From an uncultured Myxococcales bacterium (lineage in GTDB: Bacteria > Myxococcota_A > UBA9160 > SZUA-336), in NCBI GenBank assembly GCA_964454165.1, contig CAYVQJ010000084.1, positions 44,077-108,076 of the forward strand: a stretch of DNA of 64,000 nucleotides, given 5' to 3'. Shown piece after piece: positions 1 through 57,193 of the stretch. Below the pieces are notes generated by a model that was not told the origin of the DNA, made no database searches, and worked only from the letters and a program-made list of their open reading frames with translations. A program made the translations under genes and the position numbers. The stretch's first letter is position 1; each line of letters starts with the position of its first letter.

Positions 1-27
1 TGACGCGGGCCTGTGAGGGGCCGGCGC

Positions 28-456
28 TCAGGCGAGGGGGTTACGCCAGCGCAGACCCGGGAAGCGAGAGAAGTCGCCGTCGTTCGAGTGGAGCTCTGCC
101 TGATGCTCGATCGCCAGCGCGGCGAGGTGGAGATCGCTGGCCAGGGTCCCGAGCGTCCCGACGGCCGCCGCCAGCCCGTCGAGCAAATCGAGGTGACGCG
201 AGCCCGGATTCACGATCTCCACGTGAGGCCGCTCCAGCCACGACCGCACGTGTCCGAGCGCTTTGGCCGGGGTGACGGGAGCGAGGAGAGCGCGCCTGCT
301 CGTCGCGATGCGCAGGTATCCCAGAATGGCGACCCAGGCGAGTCCGACGCGCTCGCTGCCCGATAGGCTCGACTCCCACCACTCCAGCGCTCGCTCGTGT
401 TGCGGCGCAGCGTCGTTGTAGGCGTAGACGAGCAGGTTCACGTCGGGAAGGATCAG
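28..456 (-). CDS. vapC: VapC toxin, PIN-domain ribonuclease (type II TA)
   Basis: C-terminal ~135 aa of the long minus ORF (ILPDVNLLVYAY...HERALEWW...SNDGDFSRFPGL) has the PIN-domain acidic-residue pattern. It lies immediately downstream of and overlaps the vapB stop. No canonical ATG/GTG/TTG near the expected start (nearest is CTG at 456), so the 5' end is uncertain. Confidence 0.65.
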   Translation of the reverse strand: MILPDVNLLVYAYNDAAPQHERALEWWESSLSGSERVGLAWVAILGYLRIATSRRALLAPVTPAKALGHVRSWLERPHVEIVNPGSRHLDLLDGLAAAVGTLGTLASDLHLAALAIEHQAELHSNDGDFSRFPGLRWRNPLA

Positions 457-749
457 CGCCGCCCTCGACTCCGCTCGACGCCGGACGTGAACTCTTCGAC
501 CTCGAGCTCGTCCGAGAGCTGGTTCAGCCGGCTCGGGTCGACGCCGGGCTGGAAGGGGCTGGAGAACGGCTCGACCTTGAAGCGCGTAGCTCGCCGCCCG
601 GGCTTCTCGCCCATGCGCAGGCCACGCCGCAGTGCCGCGTTCAGCACCTGTTTGAGGGAGCTCCCCGTTCGGCGCATCTCGGCGCGCAGCTCGCGGGCGA
701 CGTCCTCGTCGAGGGTCAGCGTCGTGCGCACGACGGCATCTTGATGCAC
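453..749 (-). CDS. vapB: VapB/CopG-like ribbon-helix-helix antitoxin
   Basis: 98 aa; N-terminus TLTLDEDVARELRAEMRRTGSSLKQVLNAALRRGL is the typical RHH antitoxin fold signature; directly upstream of the PIN-domain gene. Confidence 0.7.
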   Translation of the reverse strand: MHQDAVVRTTLTLDEDVARELRAEMRRTGSSLKQVLNAALRRGLRMGEKPGRRATRFKVEPFSSPFQPGVDPSRLNQLSDELEVEEFTSGVERSRGRR

Positions 750-824
750 TCTCGGCCTGACAGCAAGATGCAGGCCAGCCGCTGGCGCCTTTGCCGCTTG
801 GCCGCCCTGGTGGGCTGCGGAGAT

Positions 825-838
825 TCACTGGCCAGTGA
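825..838. promoter_or_regulatory. Perfect 14-bp palindrome TCACTGGCCAGTGA in the vapB/enoyl-CoA hydratase divergent intergenic region; candidate VapB operator
   Basis: Seen directly in the sequence, ~80 bp upstream of the vapB start codon. RHH antitoxins usually autoregulate via inverted repeats in their own promoter. Confidence 0.35.
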
Positions 839-930
839 GCGGCCGGGATGGGCCAGGAATGGTCAGTACCGCCTTCGCCCGTTCCGTCGGTGATATTCTC
901 GCCCCGAGCAGACCGAAGGAAGGGGCGCGC

Positions 931-1737
931 ATGGAATTCGAGACGATCGTCGTCAAGACCGAGGGGCCGCTCGGGCACCTGATCCTGAACCGTCCCGACC
1001 GGCTGAACGCGATCGGCGCGACCATGCTGCGCGAGATCGCGCGTGCCGCGCGCTGGTTCGACGAGCAGGCGGACGTGCGCGTGGTGATCGTGCGCGGCGA
1101 GGGCCGCGCGTTCTCGGCCGGCGCTGACCTGCGCGACACGCCGGTCGGCGCTGCGAACCCCGCGTCGAACGCGCCGTGGCACGTGCGGCGCGAGGTCGGT
1201 CAGCTCGGCCTGCGCATGGCCGACGCGCTCGAGTCCATGCGCGCGATCACGATCGCGCAGGTGCAGGGCTACGCGATCGGCGGCGGCCTGGTCCTGATGA
1301 TCGCCTGCGACCTGCGCGTCGCGGCCGAGGACGCCGTGTTCTCGATCCCCGAGATCGACATCGGCATCCCGCTGGCGTGGGGCGGCATCCCGCGCCTGGT
1401 CCGCGAGATCGGCCCCGCCATGACCAAGGAGCTGGTGATGACCTGCCGCCGCTTCACCCCCGCCGAGGCGCACGCGCTCGGCGTGGTGAACCGCGTCGTC
1501 CCCGCCGCGCGCCTCGACGCCGAGGTGCGCGCGCTCGCCGACACGCTCCTCGCCAAGCCGAGCGTCCCCGTGATCATCACCAAGGAGCACACGAACGCCG
1601 TCACCCGCGCGATGGGCGCCGGCTTCACCGCCTTCGCCGACGGCGACGCGCTCCTCGCCAACGCCTTCGACCCCGCCAGCCGCGAGGCCGCGCGCGCCTA
1701 CCAGGAGAAGACCTTCGGCAAGCGCAGCCGGACCTGA
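931..1737 (+). CDS. enoyl-CoA hydratase/isomerase (crotonase family)
   Basis: Crotonase fold motifs (RPDRLNA, GRAFSAGADL, AQVQGYAIGGGL); RBS GAAGGAAGGGG before ATG 931. Confidence 0.85.
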   Translation: MEFETIVVKTEGPLGHLILNRPDRLNAIGATMLREIARAARWFDEQADVRVVIVRGEGRAFSAGADLRDTPVGAANPASNAPWHVRREVGQLGLRMADALESMRAITIAQVQGYAIGGGLVLMIACDLRVAAEDAVFSIPEIDIGIPLAWGGIPRLVREIGPAMTKELVMTCRRFTPAEAHALGVVNRVVPAARLDAEVRALADTLLAKPSVPVIITKEHTNAVTRAMGAGFTAFADGDALLANAFDPASREAARAYQEKTFGKRSRT

Positions 1738-1741
1738 TCGC

Positions 1742-1993
1742 ATGCGCTCCCGCGACACCTCGCCCGAGGCCCACCGCGTCCAGCTCGAGATCCTGCGCCG
1801 AAGCAGCCTGTCCGAACGGCTGCTCTGCGCTCTGCAGGCGGCGGACGAAGGACGCGAGCTGGTCGCCTGCGGCATCCGCATGCGCCATCCCGACTACGAC
1901 GAGCGAGACGTGCAGCGAGCGCTCCGGCGCCTCTGGCTGGGTGACGAGCTCTTCCGCGCCGCGTACGCCGGGGAGCCGCTGCTCGATCCGTGA
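1742..1993 (+). CDS. hypothetical small protein, GTGA-coupled to the downstream nucleotidyltransferase gene
   Basis: 83-aa ORF starting 5 nt after the enoyl-CoA hydratase stop; its stop overlaps the next start (GTGA). No recognisable motif. Could be the partner of the downstream minimal nucleotidyltransferase. Confidence 0.3.
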   Translation: MRSRDTSPEAHRVQLEILRRSSLSERLLCALQAADEGRELVACGIRMRHPDYDERDVQRALRRLWLGDELFRAAYAGEPLLDP

Positions 1994-2384
1994 GCCACGC
2001 GGACTTGCTGCGCCGCGTGGTGGGCTTTCTCGATGCTGCCGGCGTTCCCTGTATGCTCACTGGCTCGACGGCGAGCAGCGCGAACGGGATGGACCGGGCG
2101 ACACGCGACATCGATCTGGTGATCGAAGGCGATGCGCCTGCGCCGTCAGTTCAACGTGATCGATCTTGCGACCGGCCCGAAGGTCGACGCCGGAGGACGT
2201 GATCCTCTCGAAGCTCGAATGGGCAGCCGCGGGCGGGTCCGAGCGCCAGCTCGAAGACGTGGCAGGGATCCTTTCTGTCCGCGGGTCGCGTCTCGACCGC
2301 GTCTACATCGAACGCTGGGCCCGCGAGCTCGGCCTCGTGGCGCTATGGGAGCAGGCTCGTTCAATGGTGGAGGACGAAGGCTGA
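1990..2384 (+). pseudogene. minimal nucleotidyltransferase (MNT) domain gene split across two frames (frameshift near 2150-2200)
   Basis: ORF 1990-2202 carries the GS...DxD nucleotidyltransferase motif (LTGSTASSANGMDRATRDIDLVIEG). The plausible continuation (EDVILSKLEWAAAGGSERQLEDVAGIL...RVYIERWARELGL) lies in a different frame at 2166-2384. Either a genuine frameshift pseudogene or a sequencing indel. Confidence 0.45.
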
Positions 2385-2422
2385 GCCGCCGAGTACGGGG
2401 CCACGACGCGCGAGAGCTCGTG

Positions 2423-3514
2423 TCAGTGCCCTCCCAGCGCCGAGTGGAGGGCGAGTAGGATCCGTTCGGGCTGAGCGAGTTCGAAGGAACTCCCGCCTGC
2501 CCAGAGCGGGGCATCTAGAGCGAGGTGCTTGTAGAGGCTCGCGGCCACCGCGATCGTCCGCTTCGGCGCGAACTCCAGGCGATGTCGCAGCGCGATGTCC
2601 GCGAGTCGCGCGCTCTGGCTCGGCAAGCGGCCTGCCCAACGGTGAACGAACTTCTCGGCCGGAAGGTGGTTGCTCTTCGCGGTGTTCTGGCGTGCGTGCG
2701 CGAGCACCAGGTTCTCGAGTGTCGAGAGCGCGTGCCGCGACCAGGGAATGAAGTGATCCACGTGGGCGTCCGACATCCGGAGGGTCGCGCCGGAGTAGAA
2801 GCACTGGCCCTTTTGCAGGCTGAGTAGGTCGCGTCGAAGCTCCAGCGACGCGACCTCTCGGGGTGCGCCGAACAGGTGAGCGAGGAGCCGGTCCTGCTCG
2901 CGGTCGAGCCCGTTCAGCGCGGCCACCTTGCGCCCGAACTCGAACTCGATCAGCGGTCGCAGCGCCGGCGAGAATTGGAGCAGGTCGTCGGCGGCGCCGG
3001 GCAAGAGCTCGAGCGTGCACTTCGTCCCCGACGAAGTCCGGGCTGGCCGCGGCTCGTACAGGAAGCTCGCCTTCTGACGACCCAACGTCTGGAGCCGCGG
3101 GATGGGGTTCTTGACCAGGGCCGCCTCGACGCGTTCGACCGCCCGCTCGTACTCAGGCCCGCATGCTGCGATTGCCTGCTCGATCCGCGTGGTCTCGTCC
3201 GCTCCGCTGGCCTTGCGCAGGTCGGCGACTGCTCGAAGGTATACGTGCGGCCCCTTGGCACTCGCGTTGACCTGCGCGAGCGTGATCGCCGAGCCGTCCG
3301 CGCGGACGAACGGCAGCGCGTGCCGCCAGTGCAAGCCGATCACCCGCCGAGCGAGATCGACACTCCGAAGGTGCGGAGGAGGGACGCCGTCCGCGCTGGC
3401 CCCCTCGACGCAGCTGTCGAGGATCGCGAGTAGGAGGGCGAGCTTGTGAGTCCCGTGCTTCGGCCCCTCCGTGACGATCGCAAGGATACGCTCGAGCAAG
3501 GCGCCGGCCATCAA
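2423..3514 (-). CDS. HNH (His-Me finger) endonuclease domain protein with uncharacterised N-terminal domain
   Basis: C-terminal CFYSG...HVDHFIPWSRHALSTLENLVLAHARQNTAKSNHLP matches the HNH_4/Cas9-type HNH motif (D/H-x-D-H-I-P-x-S ... N-x-V-L ... N-x-x-K). 363 aa; co-directional downstream of the LLM/NTF2 pair. Confidence 0.7.
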   Translation of the reverse strand: MMAGALLERILAIVTEGPKHGTHKLALLLAILDSCVEGASADGVPPPHLRSVDLARRVIGLHWRHALPFVRADGSAITLAQVNASAKGPHVYLRAVADLRKASGADETTRIEQAIAACGPEYERAVERVEAALVKNPIPRLQTLGRQKASFLYEPRPARTSSGTKCTLELLPGAADDLLQFSPALRPLIEFEFGRKVAALNGLDREQDRLLAHLFGAPREVASLELRRDLLSLQKGQCFYSGATLRMSDAHVDHFIPWSRHALSTLENLVLAHARQNTAKSNHLPAEKFVHRWAGRLPSQSARLADIALRHRLEFAPKRTIAVAASLYKHLALDAPLWAGGSSFELAQPERILLALHSALGGH

Positions 3515-3538
3515 ATCCTCGCAGGCGAGCCTCTCTGC

Positions 3539-3970
3539 CTACCTTCCCCCCATCTGCCCCGGGACGTGGTTGGAGCAGTGGAAGTGGACCATGCGCCAGT
3601 CGTCGCTGGCGCCCGGCTGGCGCTGCCAGACCTCGGTGCAGCGGGCGTCCTGGGAGACGCGCCCCAGCGGGCCGAAGTCGGCCTCGAAGTGCAGCAGGTA
3701 GGCGACCCATGCGGCGTCGCCGGAGACGCTGACGCGCTCGTCGCGCGCGATGCTCTTCGCGGGCTTGCTGCCCGGAGACACGCTGCGCAGCATGTCCCAG
3801 AGCTCGCAGATGTGATCGACGCCGTAGTAGTTCGACTGGTTCAGGTTCCACCAGGTGAGCGCGTCCTTGCCGGGCGCCATGTGCGCGCGCAGGAACGCGG
3901 TCTCGCCCGTGCAGTTGGCGGCGATGAAGCCGTCGTGCAGCTCGCGGATGCGCTTCTCGTCGGGGGTCAT
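3539..3970 (-). CDS. NTF2-like / SnoaL-like domain protein
   Basis: 144-aa product from MTPDEKRIRELHDGFIAANCTGE... (ATG at 3970 overlapping the upstream stop as ATGA). Composition and pattern are typical of the NTF2-like superfamily. The longer track ORF is upstream run-on. Confidence 0.6.
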   Translation of the reverse strand: MTPDEKRIRELHDGFIAANCTGETAFLRAHMAPGKDALTWWNLNQSNYYGVDHICELWDMLRSVSPGSKPAKSIARDERVSVSGDAAWVAYLLHFEADFGPLGRVSQDARCTEVWQRQPGASDDWRMVHFHCSNHVPGQMGGR

Positions 3971-4953
3971 CGTTGTCCTCCTGCAGCGGGGCGGGCGTCG
4001 GCGAGCGCGCGCACGAGCGCCGGGTGCTCGTCGGGCGCGGCGAAGAGCGCGACGGAGAGCTCGTCGATGCCGGTGGCGGCGTAGGCGGCGAGCGCGTCGC
4101 CGAGGCCGTCGGGCGTGGAGACGAGCGCGATCGCGTCGATCACCTCGGGCGTGAAGACGCGCAGCGCGGCGAACAGGCCGCCGCTCTGCGCGGAGTTGAC
4201 CAGCGCGCCGGGTGCGATCGCGCCGCGCGCCAGGTACTCGGCCATGCCGGGCTCGGCCATCGCAAACAGAGGGAGCACCGACTTGCGCGCGGAGTCGAGA
4301 TCCTTCGCGATCACACCAAGTGCTAACGCGGTGATGCGGAAGTCGCCGCGCGCGCGGCCGGCAGCGGCGAGCTCGCGCTCGATCTCGCGCACGCTGTCTG
4401 CGAGGTACGCGCGCGACGCGCCGACCGAGAGCGAGACGCCGTCGGCGACGCGCGCCGCGGTGCCGAGCATGCGCGGGCGGATCGCCATCAGGTCGAGCGG
4501 CGGCGCGCCGGTCGCGTGCGCGAGCTTGAAGCCGCGAAAGGCGTAGCGCTCGTACGACACGTTCATCTCGGTCCCGGCGAGCGCGGCGCGGAGCGCGCGC
4601 ACGAAGCTCTCGCACGCGCGGGCGGGACCCTCGATCGCCTGCCCGAGCTTCGCGACGAGCCCCGGATCGCCGGTTCCCACGGCCGCGCGCACGCGCCCCG
4701 GGAAGCACTCGCAGAGCGACGCGAGCTCCATCGCGGTCGTGGCGGGGTGTCGCGTTGCTGTCGACAGGCCCACCACGCCGACCTCGAGCCGTTCGCTCTC
4801 CCGCAGGTACAGCGTCGCGGGGACGATCGCGTCGTGGAACCCCACGTGCTCCGCAACCCAGACGCCGTCGAGCCCCGCGCGATCCGCCTCCCGCAGCGCC
4901 GGCAGCGTGCTCGCGATCGGCGCCATCCCCGTAAAGGCCAGCGAGATCCTCAT
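3967..4953 (-). CDS. LLM-class (luciferase-like) flavin-dependent oxidoreductase
   Basis: 328 aa; TIM-barrel luciferase-like monooxygenase pattern (GLDGVWVAEHVGFHD..., F420/FMN-dependent family). Confidence 0.85.
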   Translation of the reverse strand: MRISLAFTGMAPIASTLPALREADRAGLDGVWVAEHVGFHDAIVPATLYLRESERLEVGVVGLSTATRHPATTAMELASLCECFPGRVRAAVGTGDPGLVAKLGQAIEGPARACESFVRALRAALAGTEMNVSYERYAFRGFKLAHATGAPPLDLMAIRPRMLGTAARVADGVSLSVGASRAYLADSVREIERELAAAGRARGDFRITALALGVIAKDLDSARKSVLPLFAMAEPGMAEYLARGAIAPGALVNSAQSGGLFAALRVFTPEVIDAIALVSTPDGLGDALAAYAATGIDELSVALFAAPDEHPALVRALADARPAAGGQR

Positions 4954-4977
4954 CGAGCCATTCTATGCTGGCAACGC

Positions 4978-5100
4978 CTAGTTCCGGTGGTCGAGCCAGG
5001 CGAGGATCTCGGCCGAGAAGCGCTCGAAGCGGTCCGGAGCGCGCAGCAGCACCTCGTGCACGCGGAGTCGCGCCTCGATCGATGCTCGGCGGATCGTCAC
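4978..5100 (-). other. 40-codon ORF downstream of the MNT gene; possible truncated HEPN (HepT-like) remnant
   Basis: GTG overlapping the MNT stop (GTGA). Encodes VTIRRASIEARLRVHEVLLRAPDRFERFSAEILAWLDHRN with a degenerate R-x3-H-E-V resembling the HepT Rx4HxY motif. Only 25 nt remain before the next gene. Confidence 0.2.
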
Positions 5101-5507
5101 AGCGGCCGTCCGAGCAGGTAGTGGTTCTGCACGCGGCGCAGGTGGTTGGTGTCGAGGTAGACCTGGAGCAGGCGTTCCTCCTGGACGTCGGCGGCCTCCG
5201 CGTCGCGGGCGAAGACGCGCCGGCCGCCGTCGATCACCTCGAAGGCGAGCACGGGCGTCTGGTCGCTGACGAGCGAGAGATCGATGGGTAGTTCCGTCGC
5301 TCGGGCGAGGGCCAGGCGAAGTCTCTCGCGGTCGGCGAAGGTCAGCTCCGCGCCCGGCGCGAGGATCAGCGCCACGTCGAGGTTGCTCTTCGGACGCTGC
5401 TCGCCACGCGCGCGCGAGCCGAAGAGGTACGCGGCGAGCACCGCGGACTCGTCACGCACGGCGGCCGCGATCGCGGCATCGGCGCGCGGATCGGCCGGGC
5501 TCTCCAT
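5097..5507 (-). CDS. minimal nucleotidyltransferase (MNT/MntA-like antitoxin-type)
   Basis: 137 aa from MESPADPR...; GS-x-ARG...SNLDVALI motif (FGSRARGEQRPKSNLDVAL). Remaining 5' part of the track ORF is run-on. Confidence 0.75.
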   Translation of the reverse strand: MESPADPRADAAIAAAVRDESAVLAAYLFGSRARGEQRPKSNLDVALILAPGAELTFADRERLRLALARATELPIDLSLVSDQTPVLAFEVIDGGRRVFARDAEAADVQEERLLQVYLDTNHLRRVQNHYLLGRPL

Positions 5508-5557
5508 CGGCTCCAATCTAGCGCCCGTCTCGCGGCGGAGGACGCGCCGGTGAGTCG

Positions 5558-6397
5558 CTACTTGCCGATGCGCGCGAAGTGGGGCGGGCGGCGCTCGAGG
5601 AAGCTCGCCACGCCTTCCTTGAAGTCGGGGCGCCGGCCGCTCTCTGCCATCAGCCGGTTCGCGTCGCGCATCGCCTCGCCGAGCGGGAGCATCAGGTGAC
5701 GGTAGACCTGCTGCTTCATCACCATGAGCGACGTCGGCGAGGTAGTCGCTGCGAGCTCCTCGATGTAGGCGCGCGTCTCGGCGAGCAGCTTCTCGGCGGG
5801 GAACACGCGGTTCGCGAGTCCGATGCGCTCGGCCTCGACGGCGTCCATGCGGCGCGGGCTCCAGAGCAGGTCGAGCGCGCGCGACGGGCCGAGCAGGCGC
5901 GGCAGGATCCAGCTCGCGCCGTGCTCCGCGATCAGGCCGCGCTGTCCGAAGGCGATGGTGAAGCGCGCCTGGTCGCTCGCGAAGCGCAGGTCGCAGAGTG
6001 CCGCGATCGCGAGGCCGAGTCCGGCGACCGGTCCGTTCACGGCGGCGACGAGCGGCTTCCGGATCGAGAGCAGGTAGCCGAACGTCACCTGGAAATCGGG
6101 GCCCAGCGAGGGATCGCCGGGACTGGCTTCCAGCGCAGGATCGCCCTCGAAGCCGCGGCCTCCCGCCTCGCCGGCTGCGGCCTGGGCGGAGAGGCCGCGC
6201 ATGTCGGCGCCCGCGGAGAAGCCGCGCCCCGCGCCGGTGAGAATGATTCCGACGACGCGAGCGTCGCCTTCCGCCGCCGCGAGCGCGTGGCGCAGCTCCG
6301 AGAGCATGCGCCCGGTGAGCGCGTTCAGCTTCTCGGGGCGGTTCAGCGTGATCGTCGCGACCGGCTCGGCGACCTCGTAGAGGATCTCCTGGTACAT
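5558..6397 (-). CDS. enoyl-CoA hydratase/isomerase family protein
   Basis: 279 aa; NRPEKLNAL, GRGFSAGADM, AAVNGPVAGLGL crotonase motifs. Confidence 0.85.
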   Translation of the reverse strand: MYQEILYEVAEPVATITLNRPEKLNALTGRMLSELRHALAAAEGDARVVGIILTGAGRGFSAGADMRGLSAQAAAGEAGGRGFEGDPALEASPGDPSLGPDFQVTFGYLLSIRKPLVAAVNGPVAGLGLAIAALCDLRFASDQARFTIAFGQRGLIAEHGASWILPRLLGPSRALDLLWSPRRMDAVEAERIGLANRVFPAEKLLAETRAYIEELAATTSPTSLMVMKQQVYRHLMLPLGEAMRDANRLMAESGRRPDFKEGVASFLERRPPHFARIGK

Positions 6398-6492
6398 GCG
6401 CGTCTCCTCGTCGTCGCCACAGCCTACGCCGTGCGCGCTGGTTTGGGGAACGCGTCCATTTGCGCGCGGAGTCGGGTAGCGTTGGAGAAAGG

Positions 6493-8031
6493 ATGAGCGA
6501 CCGCGACGCCGAAGCGATCCGCACCTACCACGCCGCCACCTGCCACGACGAGGCGCGCCTGCGCGCGGGTCCCCAGGGGCTCGACTGGGAGAACCAGCCG
6601 ATTCCCTGGAAGCTCTACCGCGGGCTCGAGGCGCTCGCGCTGCCGCATGCGCTCGATCCGGGCAGCGTCCCGGCGCTGCGTGCGCTCGCGCCTCTGGAGT
6701 CCTCCGCGTGTGCGAGCGCGACTCCCGACCTCGCGACCCTGGCGCGTCTGCTCCTTTTCTCGGCGGGCGTCACCAAGCGCAAGCGCGTCCCGGGCGGCGA
6801 GAGGCAGATGCGCGCGTATCCGAACACCGGCGCGCTCTACCACGTGGACCTCTACCTGGTGTGCGGCGCGCTTCCCGGGCTCGATGCGGGCGTCTATCAC
6901 TTCGGCCCACACGACTTCGCGCTGCGGCGGCTGCGTGCGGGCGACTGGCGCGGGGCGTGCGTGGCGGCGAGCGGCGGCGAGCCGCACCTGGCACGGGCTC
7001 CGGCGCTGCTCGTTTCGGGCGCGACGTGGTGGCGCAATGCCTGGAAGTACCGCGCGCGCGCCTATCGCCACGCGTTCTGGGACGCGGGCACGCTGCACGC
7101 GAACCTGCTAGCGCTCGGAGCCGTGGCGAGCCTCGCGCCGCGGCTAGTGCTCGGCTTCGCCGATCGCGACGTCGAGGCGTTGCTCGCGCTCGACCCCGAA
7201 CGCGAGGGTGCGCTCACTATGGTTGCGATCGGCGCGGGCGACGAGGCTTCGCTCGCGCCGAGGCCGGCTCCGCTCGAGCTCGAGACGGAGCCGCTCTCGC
7301 GGCACGAGCTCGACCAGCCGGAGATCCGTGCCGCTCACGCCGCGACGTCGCTGCCGGACGCAGAGGCGGCCTCGCGCTGGCGGGCCGCGGCCGCCCCGCT
7401 CCGGGCGGATCCGCCGGCACGAGGGAAGCTCTTCCCGCTGCCATCCACCGCAGCCGATGCGGCCCCGTCCGAGCCGCTCGCGTCCGTGATCCTGCGGCGC
7501 GGCTCGACTCGCGAGTTCGACGCGCAGGCGTCGCTCTCGCTGGAAGAACTTGCGCGCGTGCTCGACGCGGCGGCGGCAGGCGCGCCCTCCGACTTCGCCG
7601 AGTGGGGCGCCTCGCTCCTCGATCTGTATCTGATCGCGCACGCCGTCGAGGGTCTGCCCCCAGGCGCGTACTACCTGCGGCGCGGCGAGCGCGCGCTCGA
7701 GCTCTTGCGCGAGGGGCACTTCCGGCGCGAGGCCGGCCGGCTCGCACTGGGGCAGCCGCTCGGTGCCGACGCCTGCGCCGACCTCTACTCGCTGTGCGAC
7801 CTCGAGTCCGTGCTCGTGCAGCTCGGCGCCCGCGGCTACCGTGCCGCGCAGCTCGAGGGCGGGATCGCGGGCGGGCGCGCGTACCTGGCGAGCTACGCGC
7901 AGGGCTTCGGCGCGACCGGGCTCACGTTCCTGGACGGCGAGGTCGTCGACTTCTTCTCGCCTCACGCCGCCGGCAAGGCGGTGATGTTCCTCGTCGCGCT
8001 GGGCCGCTCCGCCCGGCGCCGCCGGGACTGA
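6493..8031 (+). CDS. SagB/ThcOx-type dehydrogenase (tandem nitroreductase-like domains)
   Basis: YHAATCH...LDWENQPIPWKLY and KRKRVPGGERQMRAYPNTGALYHVDLYLV are hallmarks of SagB-type dehydrogenase domains; the second half is a second nitroreductase-like domain. RBS GGAGAAAGG before ATG 6493. Confidence 0.8.
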   Translation: MSDRDAEAIRTYHAATCHDEARLRAGPQGLDWENQPIPWKLYRGLEALALPHALDPGSVPALRALAPLESSACASATPDLATLARLLLFSAGVTKRKRVPGGERQMRAYPNTGALYHVDLYLVCGALPGLDAGVYHFGPHDFALRRLRAGDWRGACVAASGGEPHLARAPALLVSGATWWRNAWKYRARAYRHAFWDAGTLHANLLALGAVASLAPRLVLGFADRDVEALLALDPEREGALTMVAIGAGDEASLAPRPAPLELETEPLSRHELDQPEIRAAHAATSLPDAEAASRWRAAAAPLRADPPARGKLFPLPSTAADAAPSEPLASVILRRGSTREFDAQASLSLEELARVLDAAAAGAPSDFAEWGASLLDLYLIAHAVEGLPPGAYYLRRGERALELLREGHFRREAGRLALGQPLGADACADLYSLCDLESVLVQLGARGYRAAQLEGGIAGGRAYLASYAQGFGATGLTFLDGEVVDFFSPHAAGKAVMFLVALGRSARRRRD

Positions 8032-8034
8032 GGC

Positions 8035-8886: not shown

Positions 8887-8917
8887 CGAAGCCCTCCCCT
8901 CGAGAGGAGCCTCGATT

Positions 8918-10183
8918 CTACGCCGGGGAGAGTTCCAGGTGCTTCGGCCCGCGGACCAGGAAGGAGTCCACCAGCTCGGGCTCGCCCACCGCGCGCAGTC
9001 GGGGCAGGTGCGGCGCCAGCGCCTCGAGCGCCACGCGCGCCTCGAGCCGAGCGAGCGACGCGCCGAGGCAGAAGTGCTTGCCGAAGCCGAACGCGATGTG
9101 CCCCTGTGTGTCGCGGTCCAGGTCGAAGCGGTCGGGATCGGGAAAGCGCCGCTCGTCGCGGTTGGCCGAGCCGATCAGTGCGGCGACGATCGCATCCTTG
9201 GGGATGCACGTGCCCGCGATCTGCACGTCGGCGAGCGCCTTGCGGAACACGAGCTGGATCGGCGGATCCCAGCGCAGCGTCTCCTCGATCACTTGCGGCA
9301 CCAGCGCCGGATCGGCGGCCACGCGCGCGAGGGCTTCCGGGTGGCGCAGCAGCGCGCGCACGGCGTTGCCGATCAGGTTGGTCGTCGTCTCGTTCCCCGC
9401 GACCAGGAGCAACGCGACGAACTGCACCACCTCGCGGTCGCTGAGCCCGACCTCGCCTGCCTGGTTGCCGACGAGCACGCTGACCAGGTCGTCCGTCGGC
9501 GCACGCCGCCGCTGGTGTGCGATGCGCTTCATGTACGAGATCATCTGCGTGAGCGCGCGGCTGAACTCGAGCGAGTAGGGCGTAGCGCGGCCGGCGCCGG
9601 TGGCGTTGTGAATGATCGCGTCCGACCAGCGCTTGAAGTCGCGCTGGCGCTCGGGCTCCACGCCGAGCATCTCGGCGATGATCGTGACGGGGAGCGGAAT
9701 CGCCAGCTCGCCGACCAGCTCCAATCCCTGCCCGCGGCGCAGCTTCTCCAGGCAGGTGTCGACGACCTCCTGCGCGCGCTTCTCCCACGACGCGATCCGC
9801 CGCGGCGTGAAGCCGCGGTTCACGAGAGCGCGCAGCCCGGTGTGCCGCTCGCCGTCCTCCGCGATCAGGTTGCGCGCAGACGCGAACGTGAAGGGATTCA
9901 TGCGCGTGCGCAGGAACATCAGCCCGAGGAAGCGCACCACCGGCCACGAGAGCGGCGGCATCGCGTCCTGGCCGTTGTTCATCAGCATCATGAACATGGC
10001 GCGCGACGAGAACACGTCGTCGCGCCGCAGCACGCTCTGCACGTCGTCGTAGCGCGACACGCACCAGACGTTGGCGCCCGGCGCGAAGTGGACGGGCGCG
10101 CGGTCGCGCAGCTCGCGGAAGTGCGGATACGGATCGCGGCGGAGCTCGGGCAGGAACGGGTCGTAAGCGACGGGGCTGGTCAC
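8918..10183 (-). CDS. cytochrome P450
   Basis: Heme-binding loop FGFGKHFCLGASLA plus AGNETT I-helix and ETLR motifs. GTG start at 10183 with GGAGGA RBS 9 nt upstream, overlapping the upstream stop (GTGA). Track ORF extends further 5' as run-on. Confidence 0.9.
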   Translation of the reverse strand: MTSPVAYDPFLPELRRDPYPHFRELRDRAPVHFAPGANVWCVSRYDDVQSVLRRDDVFSSRAMFMMLMNNGQDAMPPLSWPVVRFLGLMFLRTRMNPFTFASARNLIAEDGERHTGLRALVNRGFTPRRIASWEKRAQEVVDTCLEKLRRGQGLELVGELAIPLPVTIIAEMLGVEPERQRDFKRWSDAIIHNATGAGRATPYSLEFSRALTQMISYMKRIAHQRRRAPTDDLVSVLVGNQAGEVGLSDREVVQFVALLLVAGNETTTNLIGNAVRALLRHPEALARVAADPALVPQVIEETLRWDPPIQLVFRKALADVQIAGTCIPKDAIVAALIGSANRDERRFPDPDRFDLDRDTQGHIAFGFGKHFCLGASLARLEARVALEALAPHLPRLRAVGEPELVDSFLVRGPKHLELSPA

Positions 10184-10485
10184 GGCTCGATCTCCTCCGG
10201 GAAGTCGTCGAACGGGAAGGGCGCCCGCTCCTCGTTGTACGTCACGTAGCGCCCCATACGGTAGCCATACGCGAGCACGCGGTTGGCGAAACGCCGCACC
10301 CGCTCGCTCGGCGGCGCCTTGGTCACGAATGCGACGATCAGGCTGAACGCGACCAGCGTGATCAGCACGGTCTCGACGACCTGGTAGATCAGAATGAAGA
10401 GCAGGCTCTTCACGAGCCGCAGCGTGGTCTCCGGCCGCTCGATCACACCATCCTCGAACTCCGAGCTCTCGACATGCTGGACCAT
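10180..10485 (-). CDS. small membrane protein (DUF4389-like), co-transcribed with the P450
   Basis: 101 aa from MVQHVESSEF...; two hydrophobic helices (LVKSLLFILIYQVVETVLITLVAFSLIVAFV); GAGGAG RBS 6 nt upstream of ATG 10485. Confidence 0.55.
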   Translation of the reverse strand: MVQHVESSEFEDGVIERPETTLRLVKSLLFILIYQVVETVLITLVAFSLIVAFVTKAPPSERVRRFANRVLAYGYRMGRYVTYNEERAPFPFDDFPEEIEP

Positions 10486-10619
10486 TGGTTTCTCCTCGCC
10501 ACAGGCTGACGCAATCCCCATGCCGGCCTCCAGGTCCCCGGGACCTCCGCCGTCGCATCGAGACGGCACAGGTGCAGTGCCAACCAGGCAGCTACCGCAG
10601 CCCCCGGCCGGCAATGGGT

Positions 10620-10731
10620 TGGAAACGAAGTTGGATCCGAGCTCACAGAGGCCAAGCGCATATCATCGATCAAGTACCTGAAATAGCTAATGGTAATTCT
10701 GTCCTCGGCCCTGCCTTGACTTGGAAACGAA
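10620..10731. repeat. Direct 12-mer repeats TTGGAAACGAAG (10620-10631 and 10720-10731) flanking an AT-rich ~85 bp stretch in the P450-operon/fic divergent intergenic region
   Basis: Seen directly. The AT-rich core (atatcatcgatcaagtacctgaaatagctaatggtaattctg) is anomalous in a ~72% GC background. Candidate promoter/regulatory region for fic. Confidence 0.35.
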
Positions 10732-10749
10732 GCGGAACATGATTGTGCC

Positions 10750-11937
10750 ATGGCTGTCCTCTACGAGCTGCCTCGAAGCTGGATTGGCTACGACCCCGCG
10801 ACCCTGCTCCAGCCGCTTTCCGAGGCAAAGGCTGCGCTACTGGCGTTGACTCAGATCCCCTACCAGCGGAGTTGGGCGGACGACCTGCAGCGCATCCAGC
10901 TCAAGCGCGAGGTGGCGGGAACATCGCGCATCGAGGGCGCCGAGTTCACCGAGATGGAGCTGGAGGCCGCGCTCCGGCAGACACCCGAGAACCTCGCAAC
11001 GCGCTCGCAGCGGCAGGCCGCGGCGGCCGTCGCCACCTACCGGTGGATTGCGAAGTTGCCGAGCGATCGCCCGATCGACGAAGCGCTGATCTACGACGTG
11101 CACCGCCGTCTCGTTACGGGTTGCGATGACGACCACTGTCCGCCGGGCATCCTCCGCGGCCGCGACCAGAACGTGACCTTCGGCACGCCGCGCCACCGCG
11201 GCGTCGAGGGCGGCGAGGCGTGCGCCGAGGCGCTGCGCGGACTCGTCGAGTCCACAGCCACGGGCTTCCGCGCACACGATCCGCTCGTGCAGGCATTGGC
11301 GCTGCACTACCACTTGGTGGCGATGCACCCGTTCCTCGACGGCAACGGCCGCACTGCTCGCGCGCTCGAAGCGCTGATGCTGCAGCGCGTCGGGCTGCGC
11401 GACACGCTGTTCATCGCGATGTCGAACTACTATTACGAGGAGAAGCCGGCCTATCTACAGGCGCTCAACGATACGCGCGCCGCGGGCCACGATCTCACGC
11501 CCTTCCTCCGCTTTGCGCTCAAGGGGATCGAGACGCAGTGCCGGCGGCTCTTCGGCGAGATCCGTCTCCACGTCGCCAAGGCTCTGTACCGCAACACCGT
11601 TGCGGATCTCTTCGGTCGGCTTCGGTCACCGCGAAAGCGCGTCATGTCTGCGCGTCACGTGCAGCTCCTGAACCTATTGCTCGACGAGGGTAGCCTGGCT
11701 CTGAGCGCACTCTCGAAAAGAGCGGCGCCTTTCTACGCGCTCAGGAACCCGGAAAAGGCGCTGGTACGCGACCTCAATTACCTGCTTCGCCTCGAGGCCA
11801 TTGCGTTCGTCTCCGAGGGCGACAGCTACATCTTTGGAATCAACCTCGACTGGCCGACGCAGATCACCGAGACGGAGTTCTTCCGCCGCGTGAAGGAGAT
11901 GCCCAAGGGCAAGGTCTACGGCTTCCTCTCGTCCTGA
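10750..11937 (+). CDS. fic: Fic family protein (AMPylase-type; Fic domain with C-terminal winged-helix region)
   Basis: Fic motif HPFLDGNGRTARAL. N-terminal TSRIEGAEFT matches the (S/T)xxxE(G/N) inhibitory-helix motif of class II autoinhibited Fic proteins. Confidence 0.9.
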   Translation: MAVLYELPRSWIGYDPATLLQPLSEAKAALLALTQIPYQRSWADDLQRIQLKREVAGTSRIEGAEFTEMELEAALRQTPENLATRSQRQAAAAVATYRWIAKLPSDRPIDEALIYDVHRRLVTGCDDDHCPPGILRGRDQNVTFGTPRHRGVEGGEACAEALRGLVESTATGFRAHDPLVQALALHYHLVAMHPFLDGNGRTARALEALMLQRVGLRDTLFIAMSNYYYEEKPAYLQALNDTRAAGHDLTPFLRFALKGIETQCRRLFGEIRLHVAKALYRNTVADLFGRLRSPRKRVMSARHVQLLNLLLDEGSLALSALSKRAAPFYALRNPEKALVRDLNYLLRLEAIAFVSEGDSYIFGINLDWPTQITETEFFRRVKEMPKGKVYGFLSS

Positions 11938-11949
11938 TCCCGCGAGCCG

Positions 11950-12762
11950 CTACCTGGTGCGATCGCCCTTCGTGCCCCGGAGCGCGAGGTCGACGCCCGG
12001 GAGGCGGCGCTCCGCGGGGCGCTCGCGCGGGTGGCCGCCCATGTGGGCGGTGACCAGGAAGTCGGCGAAGGCGGACTCCATCGCTGCGGAGAAGCCGACG
12101 AGGTCGTGCATCTTGTTGGTGGCGAGCTTGGCCATGCGCAGCGTGCCGTAGCCCTGCTCGGCGACACGGCGCGCCCACGCCAGCGTCTCGCGCTCCAGGT
12201 CCTGCTTCGGGTAGACGCGGTTCACGAAGCCGAGCGCGCGCGCCTCTTCGGCGTCGATGAAGCGGCTCTCGAACAGCAGCTCCTTCGCCTTGCGGAAGCC
12301 GACGTCGAACGGGATCGAGAAGTACTCCACCTGACCCGCGAGGAAGCGCGCGTCGGGCGAGGCGAAGATCACGTCCATCGCGGCGGCGATCATCCAGCCG
12401 CCGTAGATGCAGTAGCCGCTCACCATCGCGACCGTGGGCTTGGGCAGGTTTCGCCATTTGAGCGTGAGATCGAGGTTGTACTTGCGGAAGGCCTCGTACT
12501 CCTCGATGCCGACCCGCGGCGTGCCGCGCGCCTTGTAGTCGGCGATCTGCTCGGGCGTGCCCAGGTCGTGTCCGGCCGAGAAGTGGTCGCCCTCGCCGCG
12601 CACCACCGCGACGCGGATCGCGCGGTCCTGCTGTGCTCTGTCGAGCGCCACGTCGAGCTCGTCGAGCAGCTGCCAGCTCTGCGCGTTGCGGTAGCGCGGG
12701 CGCGCCAGCGTGACGAGCGCGACCGCCCCGTCGGTCTCGTAGCGAACGTCCTTCAGCTCCAT
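11950..12762 (-). CDS. enoyl-CoA hydratase/isomerase family protein
   Basis: 270 aa; NRPRYRNAQS, GDHFSAGHDL, crotonase fold pattern. Confidence 0.8.
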   Translation of the reverse strand: MELKDVRYETDGAVALVTLARPRYRNAQSWQLLDELDVALDRAQQDRAIRVAVVRGEGDHFSAGHDLGTPEQIADYKARGTPRVGIEEYEAFRKYNLDLTLKWRNLPKPTVAMVSGYCIYGGWMIAAAMDVIFASPDARFLAGQVEYFSIPFDVGFRKAKELLFESRFIDAEEARALGFVNRVYPKQDLERETLAWARRVAEQGYGTLRMAKLATNKMHDLVGFSAAMESAFADFLVTAHMGGHPRERPAERRLPGVDLALRGTKGDRTR

Positions 12763-12805
12763 CGGAGTCCTCCCGGAGTCGCCTCCGGGAGCACTCTACC
12801 CCGGG

Positions 12806-13132
12806 TCAGGTGTCGGAGGAGTCGTCGCGGGGCCAGCGGCCGCTGCGGAAGGCCGTGCCATTGACCCGGGGCTCCGCGAGCCGGAACGCGACGTGCGCGT
12901 AGGCCGGACCAGGTTCAGCGACGCGCGCAAGCGCGCCGTGCTCCTCCCAGACGTCGCGGCCGAGCTCGCCGACGCTTGCGCTCGACTCCAGCCAGAGGGC
13001 GGCCTCCGGGCTTTCCTCGAGGAGCCGCTCGGCGATGGCGCGGTCCCTGGGCGCGAGCTCGCCGTCGAGCAACGCGGACAGGAGCAGCGCCTCGTCTTCG
13101 CTGACGGGCGCCGCGAGTCGTCGTGGGCTCAC
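12806..13132 (-). CDS. anti-sigma factor (small, no obvious TM segment)
   Basis: GTG at 13132 overlapping the sigma-factor stop (GTGA); contains the LSALLDGEL anti-sigma N-terminal motif. Longer track ORF is out-of-context run-on. Confidence 0.55.
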   Translation of the reverse strand: MSPRRLAAPVSEDEALLLSALLDGELAPRDRAIAERLLEESPEAALWLESSASVGELGRDVWEEHGALARVAEPGPAYAHVAFRLAEPRVNGTAFRSGRWPRDDSSDT

Positions 13133-13668
13133 GGCGCGAAGCCCAGCGCAGTGAGCTCTCGCACGAGCCGCCCACGCGCAGCCGCAAGCGACGGGCCGAC
13201 CGTGTTCTGGCTGATTCCCCGGGTCTCCGCGATCGCCTTGTAGGACAAGCCGTCGATCTCCTTCAAGATCCAGATCTCGCGCTGCGCTTCGGGGAGCTCG
13301 GCGAGTGCCTGGAGCAGCGCGCGCCGAATCCGGGCGCAGCCGAGCTCGCGCTCGGGGTCGCTGGGATCCGCATCGTCGCCGAGGGCACGCGCATGCGGGC
13401 GCGCGACCCGCGCGCGCAGGTAGTCGAACGCGGCGTTGCGCGCGATGCGGCACACCCAGCCCGGAAAGCTGCCATCGACGCGCAGGCTACCCCGCTGCGC
13501 CCACAGCCGCTCGATGGCCTGCGAGGCGACGTCCTCGCGATCGGCGGGCGGGGCGATGTAGCGCAGCACGGCCTCGACCTGTCGCCGCGCGATCGACAGC
13601 GCCTGCGCGATCTGCGCCGAATCGAACGGTCGTCCGTGGTCGCGCGTCTCCGGCAAGCCCCCTCCCAA
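13129..13668 (-). CDS. ECF-family RNA polymerase sigma factor (sigma-70 regions 2 and 4)
   Basis: Region 2 (DVASQAIERLWAQRGSLR...FPGWVCRIARNAAFDYLRAR) and region 4 (ILKEIDGLSYKAIAETRGISQNTV) are recognisable; TTG start. Confidence 0.85.
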   Translation of the reverse strand: MGGGLPETRDHGRPFDSAQIAQALSIARRQVEAVLRYIAPPADREDVASQAIERLWAQRGSLRVDGSFPGWVCRIARNAAFDYLRARVARPHARALGDDADPSDPERELGCARIRRALLQALAELPEAQREIWILKEIDGLSYKAIAETRGISQNTVGPSLAAARGRLVRELTALGFAP

Positions 13669-13726
13669 CCGACGACAAGATAGACGTCGCCGGAGGCGGG
13701 ATCGTTAGAGCGAGCCGAACGGCGGC

Positions 13727-14134
13727 CTAGGCGCCGAGCCGGCCGCCGACGAACCCTACGACCTCGGCGGCCAGGTCGACCGCCGTCGCCGCGGCGTCGC
13801 GTGTATAGACGCGCGCGGGGATGCTGTCGGGCAGTCCGTTGGGATAGCGCGTCGGAACGTAGTAGCCGTCGAGGATCGCCCAACGGAGGACGTGCTCTCG
13901 GAGCGCCGGCTCGGCTTCTCCAGCCTCGTGGCAGAGCCGCTCGACGGAGTGGCCGAGGACGATCTCCTCACCTTGCGCGTAGCGCAGCGCCTTCAGGGCC
14001 TTCTCGGCCAGCTGCTGCGCGAGGAAGCAGGCGATGTGATAGCCGCCCTGTTCGGCCAGTGCGCGCGCCCAGCGCAGGTCCTCGACTGCCTGCTCGAGCC
14101 AGCGCCTGCCCTCTTCATGCGGGGTCCTTCTCAA
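13727..14134 (-). CDS. HEPN domain protein (toxin-type partner of the upstream MNT)
   Basis: 135 aa; [21 protein letters not shown] is the classic HEPN helix signature; overlaps the MNT gene 3' end by 20 nt. Confidence 0.8.
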
Positions 14135-14471
14135 CGAGCACTACCTCGCCGGCCAGCGCGTGCCGGAGGAACGGAAGGGAGCGCAGCCGCTCGAACTCGT
14201 CGGGCGTATAGCACAGCAGATCGGCGTCGACCGACAGCGCGAGAAGCGAATAGAGCTGCTCCAGGCGCTTGGCGATGGGCAGACTCGTCTCCATCACCAC
14301 GAGGATGTCGAGATCGGTCAGCAGATCCGCGCGCCCGCGTGCATACGAGCCGAACAGGCTCACGCGGCGGACGTCCGAGCGCGCGCCGAGGCGCTCGCGA
14401 ACCACGCTCACCGCTTCCTCGAGACGGCGCCGGTACGCCGCTCGCTTCTGACTCAGCCCGTGCTCCATCAT
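14115..14471 (-). CDS. minimal nucleotidyltransferase (MNT), antitoxin-type partner of HEPN
   Basis: [21 protein letters not shown] = GS-x-ARG...D-x-D nucleotidyltransferase motif. Confidence 0.85.
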
Positions 14472-14514
14472 CGCAGCCCTTCTGGATCTGCACCGAAGGT
14501 AGCGAGCAGCCCCT

Positions 14515-15591
14515 TCAGGCGATCGGGAGGCGCCGGCCGCCGCTCGCGAGCTCGATGTCGCTGAACTCGGCAGCCCCTTCGCCGTGCTGGAACAGCGCGA
14601 CGGAGATCAGCCAGATCGCGACCACGCGCCGGGGCGGCGCGCCGATCGCGCGCGCGTAGTCGGCGCAGAGGGCGCGCTGCTCGCGCTGCCACGCGCCTAG
14701 CCCGTCGCTGCCGCTGCGCGTTACCAGGTGCGTCTCGCGCGGCGTCCACTGCGGGATCGGGCAGGCGAAGTGCGTCTCGGGCGGCAGGCAGGCGCTCCAG
14801 AAGTACGACAGGTCGCGCCCGTTCTCGAACTCGACCGCGAGCGACAGGTAGTCGTGCTGCAGGAGCTGGTCCTCGGGCTTGGAGGACGGCAGCTCGCGCA
14901 CGCGCCAGCGCCACGCGACCTGCGTGTCGGGCGCAAGCTCGAAGTCGACGGGACGCCGCAGGATCGCGACGTCGTCGCGCAGGTGCGCTGCGATGCCGGG
15001 GCGACCGTCGACGTCGATCGAGCGGTAGGTCTCGCTCTGGCCCAGGAACCACAGGTACTCCCAGCCCGCGGGCGCCTCGATCGGCGCGACCAGGCGCGCG
15101 AGTTCGGCGGCCATCCGCGGCTCTTCGGGCGCGACGCGCCGCAGCGCCTCGAGCCCGGCGCGCGCGCTCCCGCGCCAGCGCAGGATCACCACCTCGAGCT
15201 CGCCGGAGAGCGCAGCGTACGCCTCGGCCGGCGTCGCGAGCGCGCCGTCGCGCGACGACCACTCGCCCTGATAGATGGCCAGCTCGAGCGGCCCGTCGTG
15301 GGGCGCGCGGAAGGTCTGCGTGTCGGCCTGCCCGCTCCAGATCGGGCCGCGCCCGCCCACTCGCGCCCAGAGTGCGTAACGCGGCCGCGACCAGAGCCCG
15401 GCGTCGGCCAGGATCACGACCCGTCCGCTGGCGAGAATGCTGACTTCCTCACCGCGAGCGACGCGGACGCCGGTGTCGCGCCACGGTGGCGTGTTGGCGG
15501 GCACGCAAAGCGTGCGCAGCTCCGCGACGTTCCGTACGCGCTCCGCATCGGTCAGCCGCGCGATCAGCCGTTCCCAGTGCGCCTGCAGCAT
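14515..15591 (-). CDS. hypothetical two-domain protein (C-terminal DUF3047-like region)
   Basis: 358 aa from MLQAHWERLIARL (ATG 15591); C-terminal HDYLSLAVEFENGRDLSYFWSA pattern resembles DUF3047. Track ORF N-terminal extension is Arg-rich run-on. Confidence 0.45.
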   Translation of the reverse strand: MLQAHWERLIARLTDAERVRNVAELRTLCVPANTPPWRDTGVRVARGEEVSILASGRVVILADAGLWSRPRYALWARVGGRGPIWSGQADTQTFRAPHDGPLELAIYQGEWSSRDGALATPAEAYAALSGELEVVILRWRGSARAGLEALRRVAPEEPRMAAELARLVAPIEAPAGWEYLWFLGQSETYRSIDVDGRPGIAAHLRDDVAILRRPVDFELAPDTQVAWRWRVRELPSSKPEDQLLQHDYLSLAVEFENGRDLSYFWSACLPPETHFACPIPQWTPRETHLVTRSGSDGLGAWQREQRALCADYARAIGAPPRRVVAIWLISVALFQHGEGAAEFSDIELASGGRRLPIA

Positions 15592-15608
15592 CTTGCTTCT
15601 TCCTCGCC

Positions 15609-56990: not shown

Positions 56991-57193
56991 AGAGGCGGCA
57001 GCTCCGATGCGAGGCTCGAGCCTTGCGGCCGTGCCAGGACGGTGGCCTTGGAACGGCAGGTTGCCACCGAATTGCAGCTTGACTTTCTCACTTGAACTCG
57101 CGACAAGAGTTGCAGAGCCAGATCGAGGCCGCATGGCGTCGGTCGGCACTCGGCGGCATCAAGGAAATGACCGGGCGCCGGGAGGTAGAGGGA

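Follow-up and report, generated by a model that had tools for sequence, protein, structure and literature searches.

Modules related to several described toxin-antitoxin (TA) and defence systems lie in the first 15.6 kb of a 64-kb stretch of contig CAYVQJ010000084.1 (hereafter the window) from an uncultured Myxococcales bacterium, where TA, Fic and HNH nuclease genes alternate with metabolic genes. In the characterised type VII TA family, MntA poly-AMPylates the Tyr of the Rx4HxY motif in HepT. Neutralisation of the HEPN RNase HepT by MntA polyadenylylation has been described for the type VII system of Shewanella oneidensis (PMC7641770; PDB 5YEP). In MenAT1 (Rv0078B/Rv0078A) the nucleotidyltransferase toxin MenT1 extends tRNA acceptor stems, and MenA1, a small helical antitoxin of 68 aa, blocks the MenT1 active site (PMC10435456). 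SoFic, a class II Fic AMP-transferase, has been reported as a single-gene anti-phage system that is toxic and acts by abortive infection, and AS1, a 47-aa antitoxin downstream of SoFic, has been described in E. coli (PMC12249575). The type IV restriction endonucleases ScoMcrA, SprMcrA and Hga, which combine a sulfur-binding domain (SBD) with an HNH domain, depend on DNA phosphorothioation (PMC6224610, PMC7470945, PMC7461809). Further points of reference are VapBC43 of Mycobacterium tuberculosis (PDB 7VWO) and the COG1708/COG2250 pairs of MNT and HEPN proteins, represented by the structural-genomics proteins TT1696, TM0613 and ST-type HEPN.

Comparison of the window with three syntenic loci suggests, with a probability of roughly three in four, that positions 1-15.6 kb are an indel-prone chromosomal stretch in which slots between backbone genes gain and lose cassettes of one or two genes, the TA, Fic and HNH genes settling independently of one another and decaying toxin first. 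All components are new members of known families, and they constitute no new kind of system or mechanism.

Gene content of the locus and its syntenic relatives

Two sets of proteins led to the syntenic relatives, namely MenT-like homologues and members of the 90%-identity clusters of the luciferase-like monooxygenase (LLM) and of an enoyl-CoA hydratase (ECH3). The relatives are L169 (GCA_040960765.1), L172 (JGI 3300037422) and L173 (JGI 3300037479). Their ECH2, ECH3, LLM and SnoaL proteins are 91-95% identical to those of the window. The gene map of 1-17 kb was drawn from a gene call based on GC content at third codon positions (GC3) together with Pfam, NCBIfam and PADLOC scans; the window as a whole is ~71% GC. 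The biochemical activities given for the modules are those of their families and are to be read as predictions.

28-456, minus strand: vapC, predicted PIN RNase toxin of a type II TA module
453-749, minus strand: vapB, putative ribbon-helix-helix antitoxin with a weak RHH match
931-1737, plus strand: enoyl-CoA hydratase ECH1 (Pfam), variable cassette
1742-1993, plus strand: MenA1-like ORF, Rv0078B-related, intact, 83 codons
1990-2384, plus strand: broken MenT1-like nucleotidyltransferase, read in three frames
2423-3514, minus strand: HNH nuclease with an HNH_4 match, solitary, 363 aa
3539-3970, minus strand: SnoaL-like protein (Pfam), variable cassette with LLM
3967-4953, minus strand: LLM (Pfam), variable cassette with SnoaL
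4978-5100, minus strand: HepT remnant, 40-codon ORF with an internal in-frame deletion
5097-5507, minus strand: MntA-type MNT, NCBIfam MntA equivalog
5558-6397, minus strand: ECH2 (Pfam), backbone
6493-8031, plus strand: SagB-type nitroreductase (Pfam; SagB-like), variable cassette
8035-8886, minus strand: double GFA (Pfam), backbone
8918-10183, minus strand: P450 (Pfam), variable cassette with DUF4389
10180-10485, minus strand: DUF4389 (Pfam), variable cassette with P450
10750-11937, plus strand: Fic (Pfam), predicted class II AMP-transferase
11950-12762, minus strand: ECH3 (Pfam), backbone
12806-13132, minus strand: putative anti-sigma factor, backbone
13129-13668, minus strand: ECF sigma factor with Sigma70_r2 and r4_2 matches, backbone
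13727-14134, minus strand: HEPN, PF05168 / TT1696 type
14115-14471, minus strand: MNT partner of HEPN, Pfam NTP_transf_2
14515-15591, minus strand: DUF3047, variable with cupin
15609-15959, minus strand: cupin-like, variable with DUF3047
15956-17113, minus strand: beta-lactamase family, present in some of the four loci

The gene content of the three relatives is as follows.

L169: MenA, MenT (intact), HepT and MntA (intact), ECH2, GFA, ECH3, anti-sigma, sigma, PQQ propeller, DUF3047, cupin, DUF6600
L172: MenA (cut by the contig end), MenT (intact), SnoaL, LLM, ECH2, GFA, P450, DUF4389, ECH3, anti-sigma, sigma, PQQ, guanylate cyclase, beta-lactamase family
L173: 27-residue MenT remnant, SnoaL, LLM, HepT and MntA (intact), ECH2, GFA, P450, DUF4389, Beta_helix gene, ECH3, anti-sigma, sigma, PQQ

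Gene identities, lesions and presence or absence in the relatives, as read from these scans and alignments, separate a backbone (ECH2, GFA, ECH3, anti-sigma/sigma and the genes beyond) from variable slots. Blastn blocks place four segments in the window only among the four loci, namely those of HNH (2333-3542), SagB-like (6418-8037), Fic (10531-11957) and HEPN-MNT (13709-14514), and each of these cassettes stands in place of a spacer of 6-155 bp or of another gene. The slot between DUF4389 and ECH3 holds Fic in the window, a Beta_helix gene in L173 and 133 bp in L172, and that between sigma and DUF3047 holds HEPN-MNT in the window and a PQQ beta-propeller gene in the relatives; neither the PQQ nor the Beta_helix gene was found anywhere in the 64-kb window. 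MntA-HepT, SnoaL-LLM, P450-DUF4389, DUF3047-cupin and the beta-lactamase-family gene are patchily present across the four loci, and in these slots metabolic cassettes come and go no less often than those of the TA kind. The sigma and anti-sigma genes are syntenic in L169, L172 and L173 (sigma 70-79%, anti-sigma 42-49% identical) and are conserved backbone genes, outside any TA module. In Logan, the assemblies of SRR9952630 and SRR9952632, two separate runs, match window positions 2623-9089 with 100% identity, which excludes a single faulty assembly as the source of the HepT deletion and of the junctions at HNH and SagB-like.

An earlier note on this DNA, made from the sequence alone, had described six modules in the first 15 kb and attributed their mixture of intact and decayed copies to repeated acquisition and erosion. 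All six are present where it placed them, and Pfam, NCBIfam and PADLOC support the broad families that it gave. At the orthologous positions HNH, Fic and HEPN-MNT are absent from 3/3 relatives. Core conservation of the modules at the same positions, which the note had named as an outcome that would speak against an accessory status, was not found; the four-locus comparison shows accessory modules that differ in age, and it directly supports repeated acquisition and erosion.

Decay is also seen outside the TA modules of the window, with deletion remnants of cupin (L172), GFA and SagB-like (L163), DUF4389 (L162) and MenT (L173). P450 homologues are named as coming from Myxococcota metagenome-assembled genomes. 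P450 relatives L162-L168 (72-90% identity) were dropped as a source of synteny, their contexts being unrelated, and serve as remnant evidence only. Relatives at 88-90% in such unrelated places retain remnants of DUF4389 (L162 9823-10001) and of GFA with the SagB-like C-terminus (L163 11306-11710), suggesting that metabolic cassettes too move and decay. The SagB-like gene was likewise abandoned as an anchor for orthologous loci, since its best relatives are ~60% identical and show no synteny; it is a window-specific cassette. A homologue search with a concatenated ECH1+LLM+ECH3+DUF3047 query returned nothing at E<=1e-40.

Several further observations concern the neighbouring metabolic genes. 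At L172 8697-9754 a guanylate cyclase gene stands in place of DUF3047, and the cupin is cut to end remnants of 19 and 20 residues by an internal deletion of a kind resembling that in the window HepT. Past DUF6600, L169 (12116-12741) runs directly into an acyl-CoA dehydrogenase gene, and the window has three extra genes (19394-24592) before that same gene (24685-25905), which suggests that cassette variation extends beyond the TA-rich stretch. The GFA gene contains an internal direct repeat (8062-8168 / 8518-8624, 73% identity) that reflects two tandem GFA domains. The three enoyl-CoA hydratase paralogues (ECH1-3; ~30-35% mutual identity) each adjoin a TA or Fic module, an adjacency that looks coincidental because two of them are backbone genes in relatives without a neighbouring module.

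Older modules with decayed toxin genes

The module at 1742-2384 resembles MenAT1 in that a small upstream ORF weakly matching the Rv0078B Pfam family overlaps the start of a gene of the nucleotidyltransferase fold. The ORF at 1742-1993 matches Rv0078B (PF18993) at 2.3e-5 and 24.7 bits, under the 27.1 cut-off, a point of difference from MenAT1; the same weak match is found in the orthologous ORFs of L169, L170 and L171. It is 72% identical to an 83-aa ORF upstream of the intact MenT-like gene in L169, and overlaps the broken nucleotidyltransferase gene as GTGA. Homologues of the reconstructed nucleotidyltransferase are 183-192 aa long, some with weak DUF6036, AbiEii or NTP_transf_5 Pfam matches. 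A search of solved structures with the MenT remnant as a single sequence found nothing; with a 32-member family profile, the top solved structure was that of M. tuberculosis MenT1 (8AN4; 2e-8). Conserved in the toxin family are the T-x-D-x-D, K and D positions; the family is distant from MenT1, with an alignment confined to the N-terminal 96 profile positions.

Unlike the toxin gene of MenAT1, the window copy is a pseudogene with two deletions. Tblastn of intact 187-aa homologues recovered residues 1-48 in frame 1, 73-93 in frame 2 and 123-187 in frame 3; homologue residues ~49-72 and ~94-122 are missing, the frame changes twice and the catalytic core is not intact. Blastn blocks against L169 and L172 identify the lesions as deletions of 80 and 92 bp. 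MenAT occupies the same position in 3/3 relatives, intact in two and as the 27-residue remnant in the third (L173), and is ancestral to the locus. Read from its sequence, the window module is a putative antitoxin ORF, intact, joined to a dead toxin gene of the MenT type (DUF1814/AbiEii-related), and not an MNT antitoxin. The frameshift and the coupled upstream small ORF had been recognised in the earlier note; its naming of the gene as an MNT gives way to that of a MenT-type toxin, the nucleotidyltransferase being the toxin in the MenAT family.

The pair at 4978-5507 is of type VII. The MNT (5097-5507) passes the NCBIfam MntA_antitoxin model (70.1 bits against a cut-off of 60), and the 40-codon ORF 4978-5100 comes after it with a 4-nt overlap, a gene order and overlap that match those of HepT/MntA in S. 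oneidensis. The relatives encode a 142-aa HepT (PF01934) with RNVLVHAY, that is, the Rx4HxY motif, as in the S. oneidensis family. In the window, unlike in that system, only 40 codons of HepT are left and the motif is not among them, residues 1-12 being joined in frame to residues 115-142 with the loss of 102 codons. The deletion of 306 bp corresponds to L169 2847-3152 (blastn blocks), has 4 bp of microhomology and removes the Rx4HxY RNase motif. The orphan MNT and HEPN-like remnant of the earlier note are an MntA-type MNT beside a HepT remnant, shortened by an internal in-frame deletion and not by truncation.

The window MntA also departs from the S. oneidensis protein at the active site. Its motif reads GS-X10-NLD, with Asn for the first catalytic Asp (SNLD, residues 41-44); the relatives read SDLD. 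In the alignment with S. oneidensis MntA (5YEP, 2.3e-4) the N lies opposite D, and S. oneidensis and the relatives read SD(L/I)D. This substitution may reflect relaxed selection after the loss of the toxin. MntA-HepT is intact in two relatives (L169, L173) and absent in L172.

Modules found in the window genome only, of the four loci compared

The Fic protein matches Pfam Fic at 2.5e-14 and carries the core HPFLDGNGRTAR at 193-204 (HxFx(D/E)GNGRxxR motif) and, N-terminal in the same chain, the inhibitory motif TSRIEG at 58-63 ((S/T)xxxE(G/N)), which together assign it to class II. As in SoFic, an HPFxDGNGRxxR core and an inhibitory motif lie in one polypeptide, and the PADLOC SoFic model matches over its full length (1e-43, residues 6-346). 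Two features differ: the NCBIfam SoFic equivalog is failed (53 bits against 550), and the 12 bp between the Fic stop and the convergent ECH3 stop leave no space for an AS1-like gene downstream. Sequence alignments to solved SoFic structures reach residues 176-266 of Fic only. Only one sigma70-like promoter match occurs in the first 17 kb (10716-10743), just upstream of Fic and within its cassette. Searches of plasmids and phages yielded no relatives of Fic beyond those at 25-29% identity, from which no donor can be inferred. By analogy with SoFic, the protein may act in abortive infection.

The HEPN protein (13727-14134) matches Pfam HEPN (PF05168) over its full length at 1.8e-23 and, among solved structures, TT1696 (1UFB) at 8e-22. 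Its partner MNT (14115-14471) matches NTP_transf_2 (PF01909) at 1.3e-9 with an intact GSX10DXD (GS..TDLD). Both genes are intact and overlap by 20 nt, so that a full-length PF05168 protein with an overlapping upstream MNT is shared with the COG1708/COG2250 pairs. Unlike those pairs, the window HEPN has Leu at the His of Rx4H, reading RYPNGL where TT1696 has RYPDAH; an R-x(4-6)-H motif occurs nowhere in the protein, and a 97% identical copy from another sample carries the same RYPNGL. The pair stands beside sigma/anti-sigma only in the window genome; the two other descriptions of the earlier note, an intact overlapping MNT-HEPN pair at this place and a class II Fic with an intrinsic inhibitory helix, hold as they were given. 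The MNTs of the type VII and HEPN-MNT pairs (MNT2 and MNT3) show no mutual match at E<1.

The vapBC pair was compared with VapBC43. VapC matches Pfam PIN at 2.7e-10 and passes TIGR00028 (124.8 bits against 73.6), its best solved structure is VapC43 (7VWO, 2e-18; 3-141 aligned to 3-141, a full-length PIN alignment), and acidic residues (Asp/Glu) are present at 3, 33, 106 and 124-126. As in VapBC43, an upstream RHH-like partner overlaps stop to start; unlike it, the window vapC has a CTG start in place of ATG or GTG, and VapB is weakly recognised. Opposite Met1 of VapC43 the window has CTG (456-454), which forms CTGA with the overlapping vapB stop. Over 45 codons upstream of the first catalytic Asp there is no ATG, GTG or TTG; a start at the next GTG (441-439) would drop that Asp, so translation of full-length VapC may be weak. 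The 98-aa vapB ORF matches RHH_1 with an E of 0.0017 and 18.7 bits, under the 20.5 cut-off, and is assigned because of its position and its overlap with vapC.

HNH nuclease

The cassette at 2333-3542 is specific to the window genome. Its 363-aa protein has an HNH_4 match at residues 238-285 with the catalytic core D253, H254, N268 and N277, preceded by an N-terminal module of winged-helix type. At E<=1e-10 the family counts 715 representative clusters, and in place of its 'YWPQ' motif the window copy has HWRH. Like the SBD-HNH enzymes, the protein combines a Cas9-like HNH core with a predicted DNA-recognition domain N-terminal to it and is encoded by a solitary gene without a cognate methylase. 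It differs from them in having no sequence similarity to SBDs: a profile of the N-terminal domain against solved structures at E<=10 found nothing, and Foldseek against PDB returned the HNH core only. The window protein is possibly a modification-dependent, type IV-like restriction enzyme.

Distant plasmid homologues (25-30% identity) lie at L174 3411-5098, L176 3363-5002 and L175 3553-5020. They are preceded, in two cases with overlap, by a ~197-aa class I SAM methyltransferase (Pseudoalteromonas, Acinetobacter) or by a HIT-family protein (Polaromonas), and the Acinetobacter lwoffii pair of HNH and methyltransferase abuts a type I-F CRISPR-Cas locus. Such a partner is needless for type IV enzymes, which sets the plasmid homologues apart from them, and homologue and partner could be an undescribed two-gene system. 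The family is the only part of the locus with some discovery potential. A bolder proposal holds that it is an uncharacterised, fairly widespread family of modification-sensing nucleases, its winged-helix module a divergent relative of SBDs and its partner elsewhere a SAM methyltransferase or HIT protein, and, separately, that the slots are recombination hotspots swapping single-gene cassettes among related Myxococcota by an undescribed mechanism; we consider this unlikely.

Clustering, base composition and signs of mobility

Eight TA genes, Fic and HNH are confined to 14.4 kb. A phmmer search with the TA, Fic and HNH proteins and the intact HepT and MenT of L169 against every window ORF found no match outside the known loci, that is, in the other 48 kb, and a Pfam scan of ten further genes past 17 kb found no TA family. 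By our own calculation, a span this short for six loci placed uniformly in 64 kb has P ~0.003 (6r^5-5r^6, r=0.226). The TA and defence genes have a lower GC3 than other window genes (means 0.858, n=8, and 0.913, n=50; Mann-Whitney p=4.6e-5).

Signs of mobility were sought with negative results: the tRNA scan found no tRNA gene, the Rfam scan no match, and the ORF list and Pfam no integrase or transposase ORF in 1-17 kb. No repeats flank the cassettes; integron-like or repeat-bounded cassettes were rejected, because the borders carry no shared repeats or attC-like elements. The window has one transposase only, a split IS630 that lies 45 kb from the cluster (59.9-60.9 kb). In the PADLOC scan of the ten TA, Fic and HNH proteins, Fic alone matched a named system along most of the protein (SoFic, as above); the MNTs matched the candidate family PDC-S09 only, and HNH through its catalytic motif only. 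Whether or not they belong to a named system, the TA modules may or may not serve in defence.

Two observations concern the far end of the window. The low-GC stretch 57000-60900 (0.61-0.65) holds a 716-aa ORF (57574-59724) rich in Asp/Gly/Cys repeats and, beside it, the IS630-family transposase, split into an HTH part (59871-60260) and a DDE_3 part (60268-60876); it is probably a separate recent insertion. An AhpC/TSA-like gene (61729-62847, minus strand) appears split into ORFs 62422-62847 and 61729-62412 and may be a frameshifted pseudogene.

Explanations of the cluster

The explanation that we favour starts from a conserved backbone of fat-metabolism genes whose short intergenic slots would repeatedly accept and lose cassettes of one or two genes. 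Some of these are metabolic; others would be selfish or conflict genes, each acquired separately and not all at one time. The older modules, common to the relatives, would be MenA1/MenT1-like and MntA/HepT, with toxins now dead here, while Fic, HNH, MNT-HEPN and vapBC, all with intact ORFs, would be the modules that of the four genomes only this one has. Fic is presumably restrained by the inhibitory Glu helix (TSRIEG) in its own chain. Turnover may proceed by illegitimate or flank-homology recombination, and decay by microhomology-mediated deletion in which the toxin is lost first.

Some points weigh against this explanation. It rests on four loci, all of metagenomic origin; just one relative extends over the left flank (vapBC-ECH1), and the cluster is already under way where the window starts. 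Gains were told apart from losses by parsimony without a phylogeny, and the term hotspot holds relative to the 64-kb window only. The lower GC3 of the TA genes could stem from low expression and not from foreign origin, and GC3 is also low in sigma/anti-sigma (0.87-0.88) and SagB-like (0.89). As to the modules themselves, the HEPN protein, a predicted toxin, may not be an RNase toxin, the canonical His being missing, and the N-terminal domain of HNH matches SBDs no better than generic winged helices.

The earlier note called such clustering typical of genomic defence or addiction islands. Their dense packing within 14.4 kb of 64 kb and their lower GC3 would suit a single mobile island gained as a block with TA modules as addiction or defence cargo, and an integrase boundary could lie just upstream, given where the window starts. 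Yet the intervening backbone genes are collinear at 91-95% identity in three relatives without most of the modules, the modules differ one by one between genomes, and 1-17 kb contains no integrase, tRNA, transposase or direct repeat, the one transposase lying far off. The defence-island label is supported in part only, by one SoFic-like match and one possible type IV-like nuclease; no other named system was matched among the scanned proteins, mobility genes are absent from 1-17 kb, and the variable slots hold metabolic cassettes in numbers equal to those of the TA kind. The cassettes vary singly and not block-wise, unlike those of a mobile genomic island, and we regard block acquisition as extremely improbable.

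Clustering could also have no local cause. Many large Myxococcota and actinobacterial genomes are rich in TA modules, so that the window might have caught several by chance; the modules are of unrelated, non-interacting families, as the two MNTs without a mutual match illustrate, and the pattern was picked post hoc by a pattern-seeking reader. In the other 48 kb, however, the phmmer and Pfam scans found none of the TA families, the span is improbable under uniform placement, and the same slots are polymorphic in the relatives, which points to a locally raised indel rate; chance capture from a TA-rich genome is thus quite unlikely. An anti-deletion role has been proposed for the TA cassettes of superintegrons, and TA modules here might similarly be kept as post-segregational addiction elements that stabilise the adjoining accessory metabolic genes. 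TA and variable metabolic cassettes do alternate (SnoaL-LLM by MntA-HepT and MenAT, P450-DUF4389 by Fic), but the neighbouring metabolic genes are intact even though two toxins have suffered deletions and a third is without a canonical start, and SnoaL-LLM or P450-DUF4389 is kept without an adjacent module (L172 without MntA-HepT; L172 and L173 without Fic). Such stabilisation seems very doubtful.

Implications

The locus offers a small-scale picture of TA and defence-type genes as single cassettes in the slots of a conserved metabolic locus. In its older modules the toxin would have been lost first, by short microhomology deletions, while the antitoxin persists. Two annotation errors that are easily made are corrected, a MenT-type toxin taken for an MNT antitoxin and an internally deleted HepT overlooked. 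Across four related genomes, one TA pair is seen at one position in intact, broken and remnant form, a natural series of use for teaching and annotation.

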